Shown: in pieces, positions 9,284-52,474 of the stretch | Numbering within the stretch: position 1 is the stretch's first letter | Layout: each line of letters starts with the position of its first letter | Source of the DNA: Vicinamibacteria bacterium | GTDB lineage: Bacteria > Acidobacteriota > Vicinamibacteria > Fen-336 > JAGNNV01 | Assembly: GCA_031412915.1 (NCBI GenBank) | Contig: JANODX010000034.1 | Coordinates: 5,425 to 69,424, forward strand | DNA length: 64,000 nucleotides | Direction: 5' to 3' | Translations under genes and position numbers: made by a program | Notes under the pieces: model-generated | Database searches by the model: none | Told to the model about the DNA's origin: nothing | What the model saw: only the letters and a program-made list of their open reading frames with translations

Positions 9284-10621
9284 GTGTACCTGGCGTTTCT
9301 CACGCCGGAGAACTACGGTGCTTTGGCCCTTCTGCTCCTGCTGTCGACGTTCCTCAAGATCGTCTTCCGCCTGGGTCTGGACGCGGGCTTCATCAGGATC
9401 TTCTACGACCTGCGGGAAGACCAGCGGTCGCGATTCGCGGGCACGGTGTCGATCTTCTCGGCGGGCTTTGCTCTTTCGGCCTTCGCCCTGGTCTGGATCT
9501 TCTCCGCGGAAGTCTCGAGGGCCCTGTTCGAAAACACGGAGGGCGTCTTGTGGGTTCGACTGGTGGCCGCGGATCTGCTCGCGTCGTCATTTGTGTTCGT
9601 GCCCTTCGCCCTGCTGCGCATCGAGGGCCTGGCCTCCGTCTTCTCCACCTACTCCCTGGTTCGTCACGCCGCGAACACGGTTCTGAAGGTGATTCTGGTG
9701 GTCATGGGTCTCGGCGTCACCGGCGCCCTGATTTCAGACCTTCTCGGAAGCGCCCTTCTCGCCCTTCTTCTTTTCACCGAATTGAAGAAGCGGGCAACCC
9801 TGGCCTTCGATTGGGCTCCCCTTCGCGAGGCCTTGCGCTTCGGCCTGCCCAAGGTGCCGCATGGAGTTCTGGTCCAGACCCTCAATCTCGCCGATCGTCG
9901 AATCCTGGGATCCTTCGTGAGCCTGGCCGAAGTGGGCGTCTATCAGGTGGGCAACACTTTTGCGGCGGCCATGAAGTTCCCGCTCTCCGCCTTCGAGCCG
10001 GCCTGGCAACCCTTCGTCTTCGAAAACGCCAGGAAAGAAGGCGGGGCCCGCGAGATCGCTCTCGTGGCCACTCGCATGTCGATTCTCTTCGTCACCGCCG
10101 CCCTCGGACTGGCGTTGGTCCTTCCGGACGTGCTCCGCCTGGTGAGTCGCAATGAGACGTATCACGCCGGCGCCTCCGTGGTGCCGGTTCTGGTGCTGGC
10201 CTATCTGTTCCAGGGTTTCTTCCTGCTCTCCTCGGTGGGAATCACGATTGCCAAGGAGGCTCGCTACTACCCGATGATCACCGCGGCCGCCGCCGCGCTG
10301 AACATCGCGCTCAACCTCTGGCTGATTCCCCATTACGGAATTCTGGCCTCCGCCTGGGCCACGGTGGCCGGATATGCGCTGATGGCGTTCATGGGCGCCA
10401 CCATTTCGAAGAAGTTGTACCCGATTCCCGTTCAGTGGCCGCGGATCGTGGCGGCCCTCGCCGCCGGGGTGGCCTGCTTTTTCCTGGGGACACTGTTCGA
10501 CAACCACCTGGTGGGAGCTCTCACTCGAGTGGGCCTCGCTCTGGCCTTCACCGCCTTCGCCTGGAACGCCATTCTCGACGAGACGGATCGGGGCGAACTC
10601 AGGAAAATCGTGGGGCGCTAG
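9284..10621 (+). CDS. Polysaccharide biosynthesis protein / Wzx-type flippase (MOP superfamily); true start probably upstream of the first canonical start
   Basis: Multi-TM protein with a Wzx-like N-terminal motif (LTPENYGALALLLLL). The frame stays open back to 9053, and nt 9203-9283 encode a plausible first TM (LKRLANLSLAYGTADVLAQGINFLLVP) with no ATG, GTG or TTG. Confidence 0.75.
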   Translation: MYLAFLTPENYGALALLLLLSTFLKIVFRLGLDAGFIRIFYDLREDQRSRFAGTVSIFSAGFALSAFALVWIFSAEVSRALFENTEGVLWVRLVAADLLASSFVFVPFALLRIEGLASVFSTYSLVRHAANTVLKVILVVMGLGVTGALISDLLGSALLALLLFTELKKRATLAFDWAPLREALRFGLPKVPHGVLVQTLNLADRRILGSFVSLAEVGVYQVGNTFAAAMKFPLSAFEPAWQPFVFENARKEGGAREIALVATRMSILFVTAALGLALVLPDVLRLVSRNETYHAGASVVPVLVLAYLFQGFFLLSSVGITIAKEARYYPMITAAAAALNIALNLWLIPHYGILASAWATVAGYALMAFMGATISKKLYPIPVQWPRIVAALAAGVACFFLGTLFDNHLVGALTRVGLALAFTAFAWNAILDETDRGELRKIVGR

Positions 10622-10687
10622 ATCCTCCGGCCTCGATGTCGAAGTCCACCTGGGGATTCTAGCGAGCGGTCTAAGATCCGACCTCCG

Positions 10688-12853
10688 GTGTCCACCTTCT
10701 CGAAGCCCCGCGTTCTCATCGTCGACGACGACCCGATTTTTCGGAGACTGCTCGAACATCACTACGCCGCCGCCGCCTGGGAGACGGTGTCGGCCGCCGG
10801 GGTCGCCGACGGACTCGCCGCTTACGAGAAGGGTCCCTTCGATCTGGTGGTCGTGGACTATCTCCTGCCCGACGGCAATGGACAGGACTTCGTTCAGGGC
10901 GTTCGCGAGACCGATCTCGACGTCCCTATTCTGGTGGTTTCGGGAGCCTTCGACATCGACGCTCTCACCGGCTTCGTCCGCGAGGCCATCGATGACGTGC
11001 TGGCCAAGCCCATCGATTTCTTCAGACTCGCCGAGGCCACTCTTCGTTTGTCTCGCCTCGGACGCGAGCGGCGGCGAATGAGGCAACGGGCCGTGACCCT
11101 GCTGGAAGTCTCCAAAGATCTGAAAGTGGGCGGAGACTCGAAGGAGCTGCTGACACGTTTCGCGCGCGCGGTCTCCGAGGTCACGCCCTTTCGAAAGTCG
11201 GCGATCTTCATCACCGAAGGCGACGGTCGATTCGCCGTCCGCGCCGCGGTTCACGGAACCGGAGATCTTCCCGACCGTGTGCCCGCGAGCGAACTCGTTC
11301 GTGCTTTCGATCGAGGTTTCAAACTCGATCTCACTTCCTTTGTTCCCGGCCCGCTCATCGCGGGTCAACAGGCTTCTCCAAGGCCCGCCTACTCGGAGGC
11401 GCGGGCCCGAAGGCACGCACCGGAGCCCGGGGACCACGGCCTGGTGGAGATCCGCTCGCCCCATCGGCTCTGGGGCTACATCCTCTTCGAGGACCCGGAC
11501 GATCATCAAAGGCCCTCGGAAGACAGCATGCGCCTGCTGTCTCTCTTGTCCGGGTATGTCGCGACCGTCCTCGAGAACCGCGACTCCTACGATGCGGAAG
11601 CCCGTCTTCGATCGAGACTGGAGATGGTTCGCGATGTCGTTCACCTCGCCTTGCAGCGCGCCGATCTGGGAGCGGCCCGGTCCGTCATGACCGCGGCCGC
11701 GGTCACCCGCGCGGGCTACGCCTTTTCCGCCTTCCTGGAGAGGAACCGCGAGGGGCTCTGGTCGATCGAAGCTCCCTGCCCCTCGCTGCAGGGAGCCAGG
11801 GCCCCCGCCCTCATGCACGATGTCCTTGAAGTGCAGATGGCGGAGGCCCATCCGGGCGAGGCTCTCCATCTTCCCCGGCAGAGCTTCATCCTCGGACACG
11901 CGCCCCGGTTTTCCTGCGCCATTCCCGTCTTCTCCGGCTCGGAATTCAGGGGCTATTTCGTAATCGAGGACGACGGCCGCGGGGCGATCGAAGACGCGGA
12001 CGAGGCCGCCTTCCTCACCCTCTGCGATCAAATGGGCCTTCTCATCCGCAGGCTCGACTACGAGCAGGAACTCGCCCGAAAGAACGCCGAGGTCGAAACG
12101 TCCTACGCCAAGCTGCAGGCTATCCACGCGGAAAACGTCCGCATGCAGGAGGTTTTGAGACGCTATGTCCCGCCCTCCACCTGGGACAAGATCGACAAGG
12201 GGGGCGCGGGAGGGTTGGAGGGAATCGAAGAGGTGGTCAATCGAGCGGTCATGTTCGTGGATATCTGCGGCTTCACCCATGCCTCCGAGGTGCTCAAGCC
12301 CCCGCAGATCGTGGCCATGCTCAATTCGTACTTCACCGTGGTGGCCTCCATTTGTTACCAGCACGGAGGAGAGATCGTCAAGTACATTGGCGACGGGATC
12401 ATGGGGTTCTTTCCGGACGGCCCGGCCGCGGTGGCCGCGGTGTCGGACATCCTCGACGCCCGGGGCAAGATCGCGGGCCAGCTCCGGCTGAGCGATGTGG
12501 ACCCGATCGAGATTCGTCTCGGAGTGGCCTGGGGTCCCACCATTGTGACTTCGGTGGGACCGTTCTATCAGCAGGATCGAACCCTCCTCGGCGACACCGT
12601 CAACACCGCCTCCAGACTCGAGCATCGGGCCCTCCCGGGCTCGGCCCTGCTGGACCGCGGCCTCATCGGCGACCGGAATCCCGAATCCCTGGGACTCAAA
12701 TCAGTGGGAATCCTGAATCTTCGGGGAAAGAGAAAACCGGTCATGGTTTTGACCTTCGAAGGCGACGCCGACCGCTACACCGTCGCCGCCACCGGCGAAA
12801 TCACCACGGTCCTGAGCGCCGACGATGACCTCGATCCCGACCGTCTCGGGTAG
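10688..12853 (+). CDS. Response-regulator receiver - GAF-like region - class III adenylate/guanylate cyclase
   Basis: REC domain (RVLIVDDDPIFRRLL...DLVVVDYLLPDGNG...AKP). The C-terminal cyclase has both metal-binding Asp motifs (VMFVDICGFT, KYIGDGIMGFF) and GDTVNTASRLE. Confidence 0.85.
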   Translation: MSTFSKPRVLIVDDDPIFRRLLEHHYAAAAWETVSAAGVADGLAAYEKGPFDLVVVDYLLPDGNGQDFVQGVRETDLDVPILVVSGAFDIDALTGFVREAIDDVLAKPIDFFRLAEATLRLSRLGRERRRMRQRAVTLLEVSKDLKVGGDSKELLTRFARAVSEVTPFRKSAIFITEGDGRFAVRAAVHGTGDLPDRVPASELVRAFDRGFKLDLTSFVPGPLIAGQQASPRPAYSEARARRHAPEPGDHGLVEIRSPHRLWGYILFEDPDDHQRPSEDSMRLLSLLSGYVATVLENRDSYDAEARLRSRLEMVRDVVHLALQRADLGAARSVMTAAAVTRAGYAFSAFLERNREGLWSIEAPCPSLQGARAPALMHDVLEVQMAEAHPGEALHLPRQSFILGHAPRFSCAIPVFSGSEFRGYFVIEDDGRGAIEDADEAAFLTLCDQMGLLIRRLDYEQELARKNAEVETSYAKLQAIHAENVRMQEVLRRYVPPSTWDKIDKGGAGGLEGIEEVVNRAVMFVDICGFTHASEVLKPPQIVAMLNSYFTVVASICYQHGGEIVKYIGDGIMGFFPDGPAAVAAVSDILDARGKIAGQLRLSDVDPIEIRLGVAWGPTIVTSVGPFYQQDRTLLGDTVNTASRLEHRALPGSALLDRGLIGDRNPESLGLKSVGILNLRGKRKPVMVLTFEGDADRYTVAATGEITTVLSADDDLDPDRLG

Positions 12854-12898: not shown

Positions 12899-13420
12899 CT
12901 ACGGCCGCAGCGCCTTCTGAACGGCATCCTTCAGCGATTCGAGGTTTGGGTGGTCTCCCGCGAACCGGCTCGCGAACGTGTAGGGTTTCGATCCGTCAGG
13001 CATCATCAGAACAACACCCCCGAGCTGGAAGGTATCACCCTGGACGCCCGCCTGGGCGAATCCCTCCTGCCTGGCCTCGGCTCCCCGTTTGAACATCTTC
13101 GGGGACAGGAAGGACAGAAGCGGTCGCTTGAAACCGAGAGCCCGGTAGATCAGCCGCTTCTCGTCGACATAGACCGGCAGTTCGATCTTCGTCTCATCGA
13201 CGAAAGCCTTTGCGTAGCGGAGACTGGAGTGACCGATGACCACCGGCTCGACCCCGAGCTTCCGGAACGCTTCCCGTTCGCGATGCACCTGCACCGCCTG
13301 CTCGCGGCAGAAGATTCAGCCAAAGTGACGAACAAAGATGAAAAGTGCAGGCTTCTTCTTCACGATGTCCGCGAGCGACCTGTCCTTGCCCTCGAGATCC
13401 TTCACGAGAAGATCGGCCAT
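12899..13420 (-). CDS. PRXL2/SelU-like (AhpC/TSA_2 family) thiol oxidoreductase with an in-frame UGA (predicted selenocysteine) in a UxxC motif
   Basis: ATG 13420, in-frame TGA at 13316-13318, stop at 12899; 173 codons. The sequence ...KKKPALFIFVRHFG-U-IFCREQA... aligns with RRPGCFLCREE of PRXL2A. Downstream, VYVDEKRLIY and GDTFQLGGVVLM also match the family. The ATG lies 3 nt after the upstream ALDH stop. Confidence 0.7.
13289..13310 (-). other. Candidate bacterial SECIS hairpin 3' of the in-frame UGA
   Basis: The mRNA reads UGA AUCUU CUGCCGC-GAGCAG-GCGG(UG)CAG. An alternative, slightly larger fold is GCGAGCA-GGCGGUGCAGG-UGC(A)UCGC. Not validated by any model. Confidence 0.35.
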
Positions 13421-13423
13421 GGC

Positions 13424-14986
13424 CTACACGCCCCCCTGCTTGAGGATTCGATCGATCACCGGACGCGAGCCTTCGAGGGCGCTGCGCTGCATATAGAAGG
13501 CCAGGCCGCGTTCCCCTCCAAGCTCCTCGCCGTTGCCGGCGCGGCCGGGACCGCCGTGAATGAGTTGGGGCAGGACCGTACCCGGCCCGGGCGAGAGTTC
13601 CGCGATCTTTGCGCTGCCCAGGAAGACCCGGCCGTGGAAGGGTGCAAGGCCCAGCGTCGCTTCGGAGATGAAAGGGACGTCCTCCGCATAGATCGACGAA
13701 ACCAGACCGCCGGCGCCGCGCGAAACCAGCTCTACCGCCTGCGCCGCCGATCCGTCGTAGGGAACGATGGTGGCCGCGGGACCAAAGACTTCGTGAGAAT
13801 GGACGCTTGGAGCATCGGCCCCGGGTTCCACCTCGAGCAGGGTCGGGGAGACGAAGAAACCCTTGTCAGCGGAGGCCCCTTCCGGTTTCAGTCCGGGACG
13901 GGAGTGCACGAGCCGGCCATCCCGAGCCAGAAGGGAAAGCCCTTCGAGGACCACGGTCTTCTGAGCGGACGTGGCCAAAGGCCCCATGCGAACGCCGTCC
14001 GTGGCCGGATTTCCAACCACCACCACGCCGAGGCGGTCGGCCAGATCGTCGCGGACCCGTTCGCTCACAGGCTCCGGAACCAGGATGCGCCTTATGGCCG
14101 TGCATTTCTGACCCGCCTTCTGGGTCATGTCCCGCAGAACGTCCTTGAGAAAGAAGTCGTAGGTCTCGGAATCCGGTGTCACATCCGGACCGAGAACCGC
14201 CGCGTTCAGGGAGTCCGCTTCGACGTTGATTCGAGTCCCCCGCAGGACCACGCCGGACGTGGCGCGCAGCAAAGCCGCGGTGGAAGCGCCGCCGGTGAAG
14301 GCAAGACAGTCCTGTCCTTCAAGATGTTCGGTGAGATCGTCGGCCTTGCCCATCAGGAGCGAGATCGAGCCTCGGGGCCAGATGTGCGCCTCGACCAGCA
14401 GTTCGAAGAGGCGGTGGGCCACCAGGGCGGAACTCGTCGCGGGCTTCGTGAGCACGGGCATTCCCGCGAGAAGCGCCACCGCTGCCTTCTCCGCCAGACC
14501 CCAGGCGGGGAAATTGAAAGCGTTGACGTGGACGGCAACCCCGTGACGCGTGGTCAGGATGTGCTGGCCCACGAAGCGCGGGGCCCGACCGAGCTGCACG
14601 GCCTCTCCGTCCGCAAGGAGACGCTGGTCGCCCAGGGCTGCTCCCACCTCCCCAAAGGCCTGAAGAGTGACGATTGCGCCGTCGATGTCGAACTTCGCGT
14701 CGGACCGGGTATTCCCGCCATTGGCCATCGACAGAGCGATCAGTTCATCGCGATGCTGCTGCAGAAGGCCGGCCGTCTTTTGAACCAGGTCTCCCCGCTG
14801 CTTGAAGGTCAAGGCGCGCAGCGCGGGGCCCCCGACCGAACGGGCAAAGGCGAGCGCCTCCTTTCGATCCAGGCCTTGGGATGAGGCCCGAGCGAGGACA
14901 TCCTCGGTCGCGGGGTTGAGCAGGGTTTCGCCCTCTCCGGCGCCGTCCGCCCAGGAGCCGCACACGTAGCTTCTCAATCTCGTCAT
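13424..14986 (-). CDS. Aldehyde dehydrogenase family protein (PaaN/BoxD-like 3,4-dehydroadipyl-CoA semialdehyde dehydrogenase type)
   Basis: Start moved to ATG 14986 (MTRLRSYVCGSW...). Motifs NAFNFPAW, FTGGASTA and catalytic QKCTAIRR are present. Confidence 0.8.
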   Translation of the reverse strand: MTRLRSYVCGSWADGAGEGETLLNPATEDVLARASSQGLDRKEALAFARSVGGPALRALTFKQRGDLVQKTAGLLQQHRDELIALSMANGGNTRSDAKFDIDGAIVTLQAFGEVGAALGDQRLLADGEAVQLGRAPRFVGQHILTTRHGVAVHVNAFNFPAWGLAEKAAVALLAGMPVLTKPATSSALVAHRLFELLVEAHIWPRGSISLLMGKADDLTEHLEGQDCLAFTGGASTAALLRATSGVVLRGTRINVEADSLNAAVLGPDVTPDSETYDFFLKDVLRDMTQKAGQKCTAIRRILVPEPVSERVRDDLADRLGVVVVGNPATDGVRMGPLATSAQKTVVLEGLSLLARDGRLVHSRPGLKPEGASADKGFFVSPTLLEVEPGADAPSVHSHEVFGPAATIVPYDGSAAQAVELVSRGAGGLVSSIYAEDVPFISEATLGLAPFHGRVFLGSAKIAELSPGPGTVLPQLIHGGPGRAGNGEELGGERGLAFYMQRSALEGSRPVIDRILKQGGV

Positions 14987-14991
14987 GTCGT

Positions 14992-15426
14992 TCAATCCCG
15001 GAGGTGGGACTCCTGCAGGTCCATGGCCCGATTCGCAAGCGCGTCGGCCTCCTTGTTCTGCTCGCGGCGGACATGCTTGATATCGGCGGTTTCGAAGCCG
15101 CGACGCTGGGTCGAGGCCTGCCGCCACAGCCTGAGCATGTCGGGATGCTTCACTTTGTAGACGCCGTTCATCTGTTTCACCACCAGTTCCGAGTCCGATC
15201 GGATCTCGATCCGCCGGGCGCCGCGGGCGGAGGCGAGCCTGAACGCGTGAACCAGGGCCTGATACTCGGCAACGTTATTGGTAGCGGTGCCGATGAAGCC
15301 AAAGTGCTCCGCCACGGTCTGACCCTGACCATCCACGACGTGGACGCCGAAGCCCGACGGCCCGGGGTTTCCCCTCGAACCGCCGTCGATGTGAATCACG
15401 AGTTCGGGCGGGTGAGGGGAACTCAA
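14992..15426 (-). CDS. Ribonuclease H (RNase HI-like, RVT_3 type)
   Basis: IHIDGGSRGNPGPSGFG...NNVAEYQAL...IRSDSELVVKQMNG...REQNKEADALAN carries the DEDD-type RNase H motifs. Confidence 0.85.
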   Translation of the reverse strand: MSSPHPPELVIHIDGGSRGNPGPSGFGVHVVDGQGQTVAEHFGFIGTATNNVAEYQALVHAFRLASARGARRIEIRSDSELVVKQMNGVYKVKHPDMLRLWRQASTQRRGFETADIKHVRREQNKEADALANRAMDLQESHLRD

Positions 15427-15432
15427 GCAGGG

Positions 15433-16173
15433 CTAGCTTGGGAGGGGCGCTTCGATGGCTCCCTGGGGAGGAGGGGCTTCGAAGTACATGATCCGCGAAC
15501 ACGACGAGCAGGTGATGATCCCGTCGTTCCGTTTGACATCCACATACACCTGGGCCCGGAGTTTCACGTGACACATGGTACAGGCTCCGTCCTTCGCCTC
15601 GGCCAGAGCGGTGCCTCGCGCCTTCAGAATCCGTGAGTACTCGGCCAGCAGGTCCGGCTTCAGGGTTTCCACCTTCTTCTGCCGGGCGGCCGCGACTTCG
15701 CCCCTCTTGGCCTCGCATTCTCGAATACGGGCCTCGAGGGCGCTAATCTCCTGGCCCCAGGTCGCTTCCAGCGCCTTGAAGGAAGACTCCTCCTGCTTGA
15801 CCGCGACCTGGCCACCCTCGATTTTTTCCATGGCGTCGAGAATCTGGTCCTCGCGAGAACGAATCTCCCGCTCCACGTTCTCGATCTCGTGAAGGAGGGC
15901 GGTGTATTCCTTGTTCGTCTTCACATCCCCAAGCTGGCCCTTGTACTTCGAGCGCTTGGCCTCGAAATCCTGCACCTCGAGTTCGAGGTGTTTGCGATCC
16001 TTGGACTGACCGTCGAGAGCGAGTTTGGCCGCGTCCAGGGCGGCCCGGTCGGCCATGATCTGAGCGTCGATCGCCGCTTTCTTCTGGGGCAGGGCCAGAA
16101 GCTCTTTGTCGAAACTCCTCAACTCCACATCGGCCCGGTGGAGATCCACCAACGTCTCGAGATCAGGGTGCAT
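15433..16173 (-). CDS. Coiled-coil protein with C-terminal C4 zinc ribbon (COG1579/DUF164-like)
   Basis: Long heptad-rich region followed by CTMCHVKL...ITCSSCSRIMY. Confidence 0.75.
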   Translation of the reverse strand: MHPDLETLVDLHRADVELRSFDKELLALPQKKAAIDAQIMADRAALDAAKLALDGQSKDRKHLELEVQDFEAKRSKYKGQLGDVKTNKEYTALLHEIENVEREIRSREDQILDAMEKIEGGQVAVKQEESSFKALEATWGQEISALEARIRECEAKRGEVAAARQKKVETLKPDLLAEYSRILKARGTALAEAKDGACTMCHVKLRAQVYVDVKRNDGIITCSSCSRIMYFEAPPPQGAIEAPLPS

Positions 16174-52382: not shown

Positions 52383-52474
52383 GGAGAGATGCCGGAGTGG
52401 CTGAACGGGCCAGGTTGCTAACCTGTTGTGCGGGGTTTCCTGCACCGGGGGTTCGAATCCCCCTCTCTCCGCCA
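52383..52474 (+). tRNA. tRNA-Ser (anticodon GCU), type II with long variable arm, CCA encoded
   Basis: Acceptor GGAGAGA/TCTCTCC, anticodon loop TT-GCT-AA, 7-bp variable arm GTGCGGG/CCTGCAC, T arm GGGGG-TTCGAAT-CCCCC, discriminator G, then CCA. Confidence 0.9.

Follow-up and report, generated by a model that had tools for sequence, protein, structure and literature searches.

The 64-kb stretch of Vicinamibacteria DNA analyzed here (hereafter the window) very probably encodes a 173-residue selenoprotein on its minus strand, at positions 13420..12899, in which the UGA at codon 35 is recoded to selenocysteine (Sec). The recoding signature consists of a conserved UGA, pairing of Sec with Cys, selected codons upstream of the UGA, and a covarying SECIS with synonymous constraint. 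Family matches and a structural model of a homolog place the product among the thioredoxin-fold proteins of the SelL-related/AhpC-TSA_2 (PRXL2-like) family.

Gene structure and reading frame

Translation of the minus-strand frame from the ATG at 13420 (start codon 13418..13420) to the TAG stop at 12901-12899 gave 173 sense codons, the lone internal stop being the TGA at 13318-13316. The conceptual product reads MADLLVKDLEGKDRSLADIVKKKPALFIFVRHFG-[TGA]-IFCREQAVQVHRE..., with IFCREQ directly after the TGA. Its UxxC redox motif is U-I-F-C (Sec35, Cys38); codon 35 (13316..13318) supplies the first position and a TGC codon (13307..13309) the resolving Cys38. The list of open reading frames (ORFs) gives for this gene only a 131-aa call with a GTG start at 12899..13294, minus strand. 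A sequence-only reading of the same DNA had pointed to this short call, to the single TGA bridging to the ATG at 13420 with 173 codons in all, and to the position of that ATG 3 nt past the stop of an upstream aldehyde dehydrogenase (ALDH) gene; the ORF list and the translation agree with it on each point, the ALDH TAG lying at 13426-13424 and being followed by the spacer GCC and then by the ATG. A window-wide scan found no other credible in-frame TGA in a redox-motif context. The frame also seems to run on, past another TGA at 12703, into an ORF of 963 aa on the minus strand (9734-12625). We rejected this as a GC-rich shadow ORF without family matches; it is the plus strand that carries the true gene of that region.

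Family assignment and predicted fold

With U read as C, the window protein matched the Pfam model AhpC-TSA_2 (PF13911; 1.3e-17, 64.7 bits versus a threshold of 27). It also matched Redoxin and AhpC-TSA (PF00578; 46 bits); the latter match spans residues 3-101, indicating that the N-terminal extension contributes to it. Against NCBIfam NF040769, the model for a "SelL-related redox protein" with a curated cutoff of 120 bits, the read-through protein scored 122.7 bits and matched nearly the whole profile (positions 5-171 of 173). The 131-aa call reached 71 bits over profile positions 45-171 and failed the same cutoff. Sec forms from three related loci (L016, L019, and L030) and one Cys-containing homolog (P0113) also passed, and four other relatives (L039, L029, P0118, and P0120) missed slightly, with 110-117.5 bits. 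The score of the window protein itself barely exceeds the cutoff.

The best match by sequence in the PDB was human PRXL2B (9us9; E = 1.4e-9), in which RRFGCVVCR aligned with RHFG[U]IFCR of the window protein. PRXL2B also ranked first by fold (Foldseek, TM 0.69-0.87; 9usa is the C44S/C47S mutant) and was followed by PrxQ/BCP peroxiredoxins. In the AlphaFold (AF2) model of P0113, the closest full-length Cys homolog (pLDDT 82, pTM 0.78), the motif Cys caps the N terminus of helix 44-54, which strand 33-38 immediately precedes; this is the canonical position of CxxC in a thioredoxin fold. The assignment to an AhpC/TSA_2 family of the PRXL2/SelU type, made earlier from the letters of the sequence, was thus borne out by the PF13911 score and by PRXL2B ranking best by both sequence and fold. 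The same reading had noted that the 131-aa call lacks the redox motif, and that fragment is indeed missing strand beta-1 and the whole motif.

Conservation of the UGA and of the codons upstream

In the full-length homologs P0113-P0120, which read FVRHFGCIFCREQ, the residue aligned with the TGA is the first Cys of CxxC; these full-length Cys homologs are 182-189 aa long and 35-40% identical to the window protein. A replacement of the first Cys of CxxC by TGA is what had been proposed from the sequence, and the alignment places the codon there. Scanning one genome per GTDB species for relatives yielded 40 loci, of which 39 reach the N-terminus. All 39 carry a TGA at the exact RH[FY]G-TGA position. 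They belong to Vicinamibacteria, other Acidobacteriota, Myxococcota/"deltaproteobacteria," Spirochaetales, Dormibacterota, and Desulfobacter latus, that is, to at least five phylum-level groups. Orthologs had been named as the place to look for either Cys or TGA at this position, and both were found, TGA throughout these loci and Cys in the distant full-length homologs. The resolving position is Cys in every locus except that of Desulfobacter latus (L039), which has Ser.

The segment upstream of the TGA evolves as coding sequence. For the 34 upstream codons, a comparison of 15 Vicinamibacteria orthologs gave a median dN/dS of 0.145 at a pS of 0.56, compared with 0.084 for the part downstream, and the codons contained zero stops and zero frameshifts. 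An ATG or GTG occupies the identical aligned start position in 15 of 15. Since the N-terminal codons are under purifying selection and are free of stops and frameshifts, a decaying pseudogene is excluded. The N-terminal extension proposed earlier is accordingly real, and the additional stops or frameshifts that had been named as evidence of decay do not occur in these relatives.

These data bear on the reading implied by current annotation, in which the TGA is taken as a nonsense mutation and the locus makes nothing functional or at most a 131-aa fragment from the GTG at 13294. Gene callers and 112 database entries treat the gene in this way, and the 64-kb window showed none of the Sec machinery. 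Against this stand the occurrence of the same TGA in all 39 loci across several phyla and the purifying selection on the 34 intact codons upstream, as well as the nature of the fragment, which lacks strand beta-1 and the redox motif and remains far below the family cutoff. In addition, the supposed start, the GTG at 13292..13294, is really the Val43 codon and lies inside the 5' strand of a covarying RNA stem (see below). We regard truncation or pseudogenization as extremely improbable, and conservation effectively refutes it.

A candidate SECIS element within the coding region

A hairpin at 13280..13297 on the minus strand (hairpin A) is the candidate bacterial SECIS (bSECIS) of the gene, on the basis of published bSECIS criteria, covariation, four-fold sites, and a control with Cys forms. 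It reads GCGGUGC-AGGU-GCAUCGC, with a 7-bp stem formed by 13297-13291 and 13286-13280 and the apical loop AGGU at 13290-13287. Published criteria comprise an apical loop of 3-9 nt with G in the first two loop positions, a stem of 4-16 bp, a UGA-to-loop distance of 16-37 nt, and an MFE of at most -7.5 kcal/mol (PMC13188914, Fig. 2A). With a UGA-to-loop distance of 25 nt and an energy of -10.1 kcal/mol, hairpin A falls within four of four. Using a strict contiguous-stem scorer, 37 of the 40 loci passed all criteria with one of two hairpin registers, A or B, compared with 8.7% of shuffles. Register A was found in 31 of the 40 loci with varying stem sequences (GUCGCGC/GCGCGAC, GCCGCGC/GCGUGGC, and GUCACGC/GCGUGAC). 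Six loci have register B, in which a hairpin with perfect or almost perfect pairing lies 8 nt nearer the UGA (GCGAGCA-GGU-UGCUCGC), with 17 nt to the loop.

Comparative analysis indicated that hairpin A is maintained as a structure. Across 25 distinct sequences, its positions were paired in 98.3% of cases, with compensatory double changes at 4 of 7 pairs (34 cells), and none of 500 shuffles reached its paired fraction and covariation score. Shifting the 3' partner by 1-3 columns lowered pairing to 14-61%. In the 15 Vicinamibacteria orthologs, the third base was invariant at 3 of 44 four-fold sites at which the amino acid is invariant, and all three sites (Ala42 GCG, Val43 GTG, and Arg47 CGC) are in the stem; the probability of this placement by chance is 1/C(44,3) = 1/13,244. 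The third base of His46 is exclusively U or C, either of which pairs with the opposing G. As a control, four genes encoding Cys forms were compared, and hairpin A is missing from all four; they formed 1-5 of the 7 pairs at the A/B positions. Three of the four had no bSECIS-like hairpin at all, and the fourth contained an unrelated hairpin that happens to meet the bSECIS criteria.

The stem-loop originally suggested as the SECIS was a different one, CUGCCGC-GAGCAG-GCGG(UG)CAG. This hairpin is present in the sequence, but as a SECIS it did not stand: its stem (alignment columns 12-18 / 25-33) shows 83% pairing without a single compensatory change, its measures lie at or below the shuffle mean, and it is mutually exclusive with hairpin A. 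The expectation that a conserved stem-loop follows the TGA nevertheless proved correct, the conserved and covarying one being the next hairpin, at 13297-13280.

Searches of 13150-13450 against Rfam at E<=10 gave no match, and at gathering thresholds the whole window yielded a tRNA alone. The absence of a match carries little weight as evidence, because published bSECIS elements are often mutually dissimilar (PMC13188914). The folding stability of the whole segment was unremarkable (MFE, z = -0.82); the informative signal comes from the local comparative analysis and not from whole-segment MFE. Compared with the E. coli fdhF-type bSECIS, hairpin A is alike in being an in-frame stem-loop downstream of the UGA, in its 7-bp stem, and in its 25-nt spacing. 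Like bSECIS elements, it also has a loop of 4 nt in which the second position is G and the next is G or U. In sequence it resembles no Rfam model. A further difference is that the SelL-related family has two alternative registers inside one protein family, with either 25 or 17 nt to the loop.

Decoding of the UGA

In the mechanism that we propose, hairpin A would act as a bacterial SECIS from within the coding region. Its small AGGU loop, 25 nt past the UGA, would be presented to SelB carrying Sec-tRNA(Sec), and the SelB complex would deliver Sec at the UGA in competition with RF2. Insertion of Sec at this codon is thus predicted from the sequence comparisons above. ARAGORN found no tRNA-Sec in the window or in the 40 loci, which together are a small genome sample; the window tRNA is a tRNA-Ser(GCU) at 52383-52474 alone. 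Likewise, tblastn with E. coli SelA, SelB, and SelD probes found no selA, selB, or selD in the window and ~700 kb of related loci, as expected at such a sample size. The lone weak match, in the Desulfobacter latus locus, turned out to be EF-G.

An amino acid other than Sec could in principle be inserted at the UGA, for example Cys by a tRNA(Cys) that mimics tRNA(Sec) (selC*), or a residue carried by a suppressor allo-tRNA. The selC* tRNA(Cys) may be an opal suppressor in Deltaproteobacteria, and acidobacterial allo-tRNAs may be missense or nonsense suppressors (PMC5389517); the window itself has a tRNA-Ser(GCU) as its sole tRNA. Nevertheless, general suppression needs no conserved local hairpin, and the hairpin found here fits the SelB-type bSECIS consensus in its spacing and G-containing loop. 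The family is moreover catalogued as a selenoprotein family, and a Sec/Cys pair at a catalytic CxxC is the classical selenoprotein signature (PMC13188914). We therefore consider read-through with another amino acid very unlikely.

Alternatively, termination at the UGA might dominate, with read-through being minor and selenium dependent and the hairpin serving mainly as a translational or mRNA-stability element at the 3' end of the ALDH operon. As PMC4513850 outlines, Sec recoding has RF2 as a competitor and, even in E. coli, reaches only partial efficiency, and the gene is the last one of its operon, beside a convergent gene. Both halves of the protein are under strong purifying selection, however, and the full UxxC domain is kept in many contexts, including fusions with a large SDR domain downstream of the UGA. 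Selection on both halves together with the SDR fusions beyond the UGA shows that selection acts on the full-length product, so that predominant termination appears highly improbable. Recoding of the UGA to Sec is the reading that we follow below.

Relationship to known selenoproteins

The window gene is an unannotated addition to an already catalogued selenoprotein family and not a new kind of system. Two catalogued groups of prokaryotic selenoproteins resemble it. One is the "AhpC/TSA family protein" (pfam13911/cd02970, UxxS), first described from Olavius algarvensis symbionts (PMC9312934, PMC13188914). It has PF13911 and a first-position Sec in common with the window gene and differs in its UxxS motif, whereas the window gene and most of its relatives are UxxC; the Desulfobacter latus protein, with U-V-F-S, is the exact listed UxxS form. 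The other is the "Prx-like thiol:disulfide oxidoreductase," with a UxxC or UxxU motif and assigned to pfam00578, attributed to Kryukov and Gladyshev 2004 as cited in PMC9312934 and PMC13188914; catalogs have listed UxxC "Prx-like" selenoproteins since 2004-2008. Like the window protein, which also matches PF00578, these have a thioredoxin-like UxxC in a peroxiredoxin-like fold. They are listed under PF00578, with WP_010940744.1 as reference protein, whereas the best model for the window protein is PF13911, in a comparison made by model and motif only.

Sec lies where a peroxiredoxin has Thr, and the window protein is therefore no canonical peroxiredoxin. It has U-I-F-C in place of the peroxidatic T/S-x-x-C motif (TxxU if Prx contains Sec), and its PF00578 match is weaker than that to PF13911. 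The literature likewise separates "Prx-like UxxC" from Prx "TxxU" selenoproteins. Eukaryotic SelL, which has a UxxU motif, is described in secondary literature as a Prx-like protein with two Sec residues (PMC3316567). The window gene has one TGA, with TGC (Cys38) at the second position, and not the UxxU with two Sec residues and a single SECIS that characterizes SelL. We call the protein SelL-related, not SelL proper, because it would contain one Sec and not two.

CxxC or UxxC occupies the same structural position in PRXL2B (9us9/9usa, catalytic C44/C47) as in the window family. The identity of the window protein to PRXL2B, eukaryotic SelL, and SelU/PRXL2A-C is only ~22-26%, and the eukaryotic SelL and SelU genes carry their SECIS in the 3'-UTR, whereas the hairpin of the window gene is within the coding region.

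Genomic context and possible function

The ORF directly upstream (13424..15127, minus strand) matched NCBIfam NF008868 over residues 48-563 (690.7 bits, cutoff 444) and encodes a PaaZ-like ALDH of the 3,4-dehydroadipyl-CoA semialdehyde dehydrogenase family; translation of the latter probably begins about 40 codons into the ORF. No promoter-like site was found between it and the selenoprotein gene. Downstream, the neighboring gene (10688-12853) lies convergently on the plus strand and codes for a response regulator-GAF-adenylate/guanylate cyclase. Given this convergent gene and the shadow nature of the minus-strand ORF at 9734-12625, the selenoprotein gene is predicted to be the last gene of an operon with the PaaZ-like ALDH.

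Linkage to dehydrogenase genes recurs among the relatives. Synteny was read for the ALDH and SDR cases only, since greedy ORF picking and same-strand neighbor lists were too noisy in the GC-rich loci. The ALDH gene is directly upstream of the selenoprotein gene in the window, in all Vicinamibacteria loci, and in L016. In nine loci from Myxococcota/"deltaproteobacteria"/Spirochaetales (L021, L022, L024, L025, L028, L032, L035, L036, and L038), the protein has a C-terminal SDR fusion (adh_short, 1.6e-23). In Desulfobacter latus, an SRPBCC(lipid-binding)-SDR gene lies 55 nt downstream. Among the Cys forms, P0120 adjoins an SDR gene and P0113 a Zn-ADH gene.

The catalytic chemistry and substrate can be approached by analogy. 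PRXL2B, the nearest relative that has been characterized, is a prostamide/prostaglandin F synthase, which reduces a lipid endoperoxide. Sec35 would cap the N terminus of helix alpha-1, with strand beta-1 immediately before it, and would serve as the nucleophile of the U-I-F-C motif. By analogy with PRXL2B, it would attack an oxidized substrate, which may be a disulfide, an organic peroxide, or an endoperoxide. A Sec35-Cys38 selenenylsulfide would then form and be re-reduced by a thioredoxin-type reductant.

The recurrent dehydrogenase linkage in unrelated lineages, together with the reduction of a lipid endoperoxide by PRXL2B, suggests a bacterial peroxide-reduction pathway. In this possible and as yet undescribed pathway, the selenoprotein would reduce a lipid or other organic (endo)peroxide to an alcohol or aldehyde, which the partner dehydrogenase would then process. 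Alternatively, the fused SDR domain might recycle the selenenylsulfide directly. Judging from gene order and fusions, it is conceivable, although rather unlikely, that SelL-related UxxC/CxxC proteins form a fixed module with NAD(P)-dependent dehydrogenases acting on hydrophobic carbonyl or alcohol substrates. This association is the sole, modest lead from the window gene toward new biology or function.

Truncated entries in public databases

The short call is not peculiar to the window. The 112 close database homologs (60-82% identity) were all called as proteins of ~128-132 aa that cover the C-terminal 73-75% of the query, indicating that all are cut at the same place. The Vicinamibacteria clade is deposited as truncated entries named "AhpC/TSA family protein," "peroxiredoxin-like, partial," or "hypothetical protein." Standard gene callers had been expected to truncate this gene, and the ORF list and the 112 homologs are truncated alike. 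With a profile built from database sequences, a search of 1.84 billion representatives recovered 7,670 members of the family with E<=1e-3; with E<=1e-30 there were 241. Of the best 150, ~28 start right after the Cys/Sec column and are 123-143 aa long (264-469 aa if fused), and the others are full-length Cys forms. A start right after this column is the signature of a miscalled Sec form.

This is a textbook-type case: Sec pairs with Cys, the in-frame SECIS covaries, and gene callers place the start codon wrongly, inside the SECIS stem. The gene and more than 100 close public relatives are stored as ~130-residue fragments that lack the catalytic motif, and selenium use by Vicinamibacteria is therefore invisible in standard annotation. 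Read correctly, the gene would add a selenoprotein to this widespread class of soil acidobacteria and would imply a Sec-decoding trait.

Candidate SECIS element and its surroundings

The spacer that separates the UGA from the hairpin in the selenoprotein gene comprises codons 36-41 (window 13298-13315, minus strand), which read ATC TTC TGC CGM GAG CAG. Among the 15 Vicinamibacteria orthologs, these codons were nearly invariant at synonymous positions, the exceptions being the third base of Arg39 and one ortholog, L014, that differed more widely. The codons for R31, F33, and G34, just upstream of the UGA, varied freely in the same 15 orthologs. Constraint extends past the 7-bp stem and into the spacer.

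The first 45 nt after the TGA were compared between six loci (L026, L030, L031, L034, L039, and L040) and the remaining loci. Within this single protein family, the SECIS hairpin occurred in two alternative registers, one with 25 nt from the UGA to the loop and an AGKU loop, the other with 17 nt and a GGU loop. Sequence that formed an arm in one group served as spacer or as the opposite arm in the other, an apparent evolutionary shift of the SECIS element by 8 nt between the groups.

Three loci (L029, L033, and L037), from Candidatus Dormibacterota and one unidentified bacterium, constituted a divergent subgroup with the motif U-[TI]-H-C-K, as opposed to U-x-F-C-R-E. Their hairpins were weaker and interrupted by a mismatch, with 6/7 pairs, and those of L033 and L037 did not pass the strict SECIS scorer.

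A hairpin was also observed in a gene encoding a Cys-form homolog, P0113 from Dehalococcoidia (L041:3001-3549). This 7-bp hairpin (GCAGGUC-CGU-GACCUGC, -10.1 kcal/mol), positioned 21 nt downstream of the Cys codon, conforms to the bSECIS criteria. It could have arisen by chance (8.7% expected) or could be a leftover of an earlier Sec form.

Genes neighboring the selenoprotein gene

On the minus strand, a 963-aa ORF (9734-12625) is in frame with the selenoprotein gene via an additional TGA at 12703. It had no family matches and appears to be a GC-rich shadow ORF. The genuine gene in this region is on the plus strand (10688-12853); it overlaps the 963-aa ORF, is convergent with the selenoprotein gene, and encodes a response regulator-GAF-adenylate/guanylate cyclase.

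Upstream of the aldehyde dehydrogenase gene, a CT398-like protein with a coiled coil and a C4 zinc ribbon is encoded at 15433-16173 (minus strand); it is CdsZ-like, below the NCBIfam cutoff. The gene occupied the same position in 13 Vicinamibacteria loci, that is, all except L012, which lacks upstream DNA. The sole tRNA in the window is a long-arm tRNA-Ser(GCU) at 52383-52474 (plus strand). The same type of tRNA lies ~5.5 kb downstream of the selenoprotein ortholog in L002 (14574-14665), indicating that the gene order of the locus differs among relatives.

Domain fusions and a cultured relative

In nine loci (L021, L022, L024, L025, L028, L032, L035, L036, and L038), from Myxococcota, 'deltaproteobacteria', and Spirochaetales, a single fused gene encodes the SelL-related Sec domain and a C-terminal short-chain dehydrogenase (SDR) domain of ~300 aa (adh_short match, 1.6e-23). 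These genes start ~100 nt before position 10103 of the 20-kb loci. Since the Sec domain is N-terminal to the SDR, a large domain follows the Sec-UGA. In databases, entries such as P0198 (469 aa) start immediately past the UGA.

The relative in Desulfobacter latus AcRS2, a cultured strain (L039:10103-12011), carries U-V-F-S rather than UxxC, and this UxxS motif is the form listed in reviews. A gene encoding an SRPBCC (Polyketide_cyc2)-SDR fusion lies 55 nt downstream of the selenoprotein gene, a neighbor suggestive of a lipid or otherwise hydrophobic substrate.
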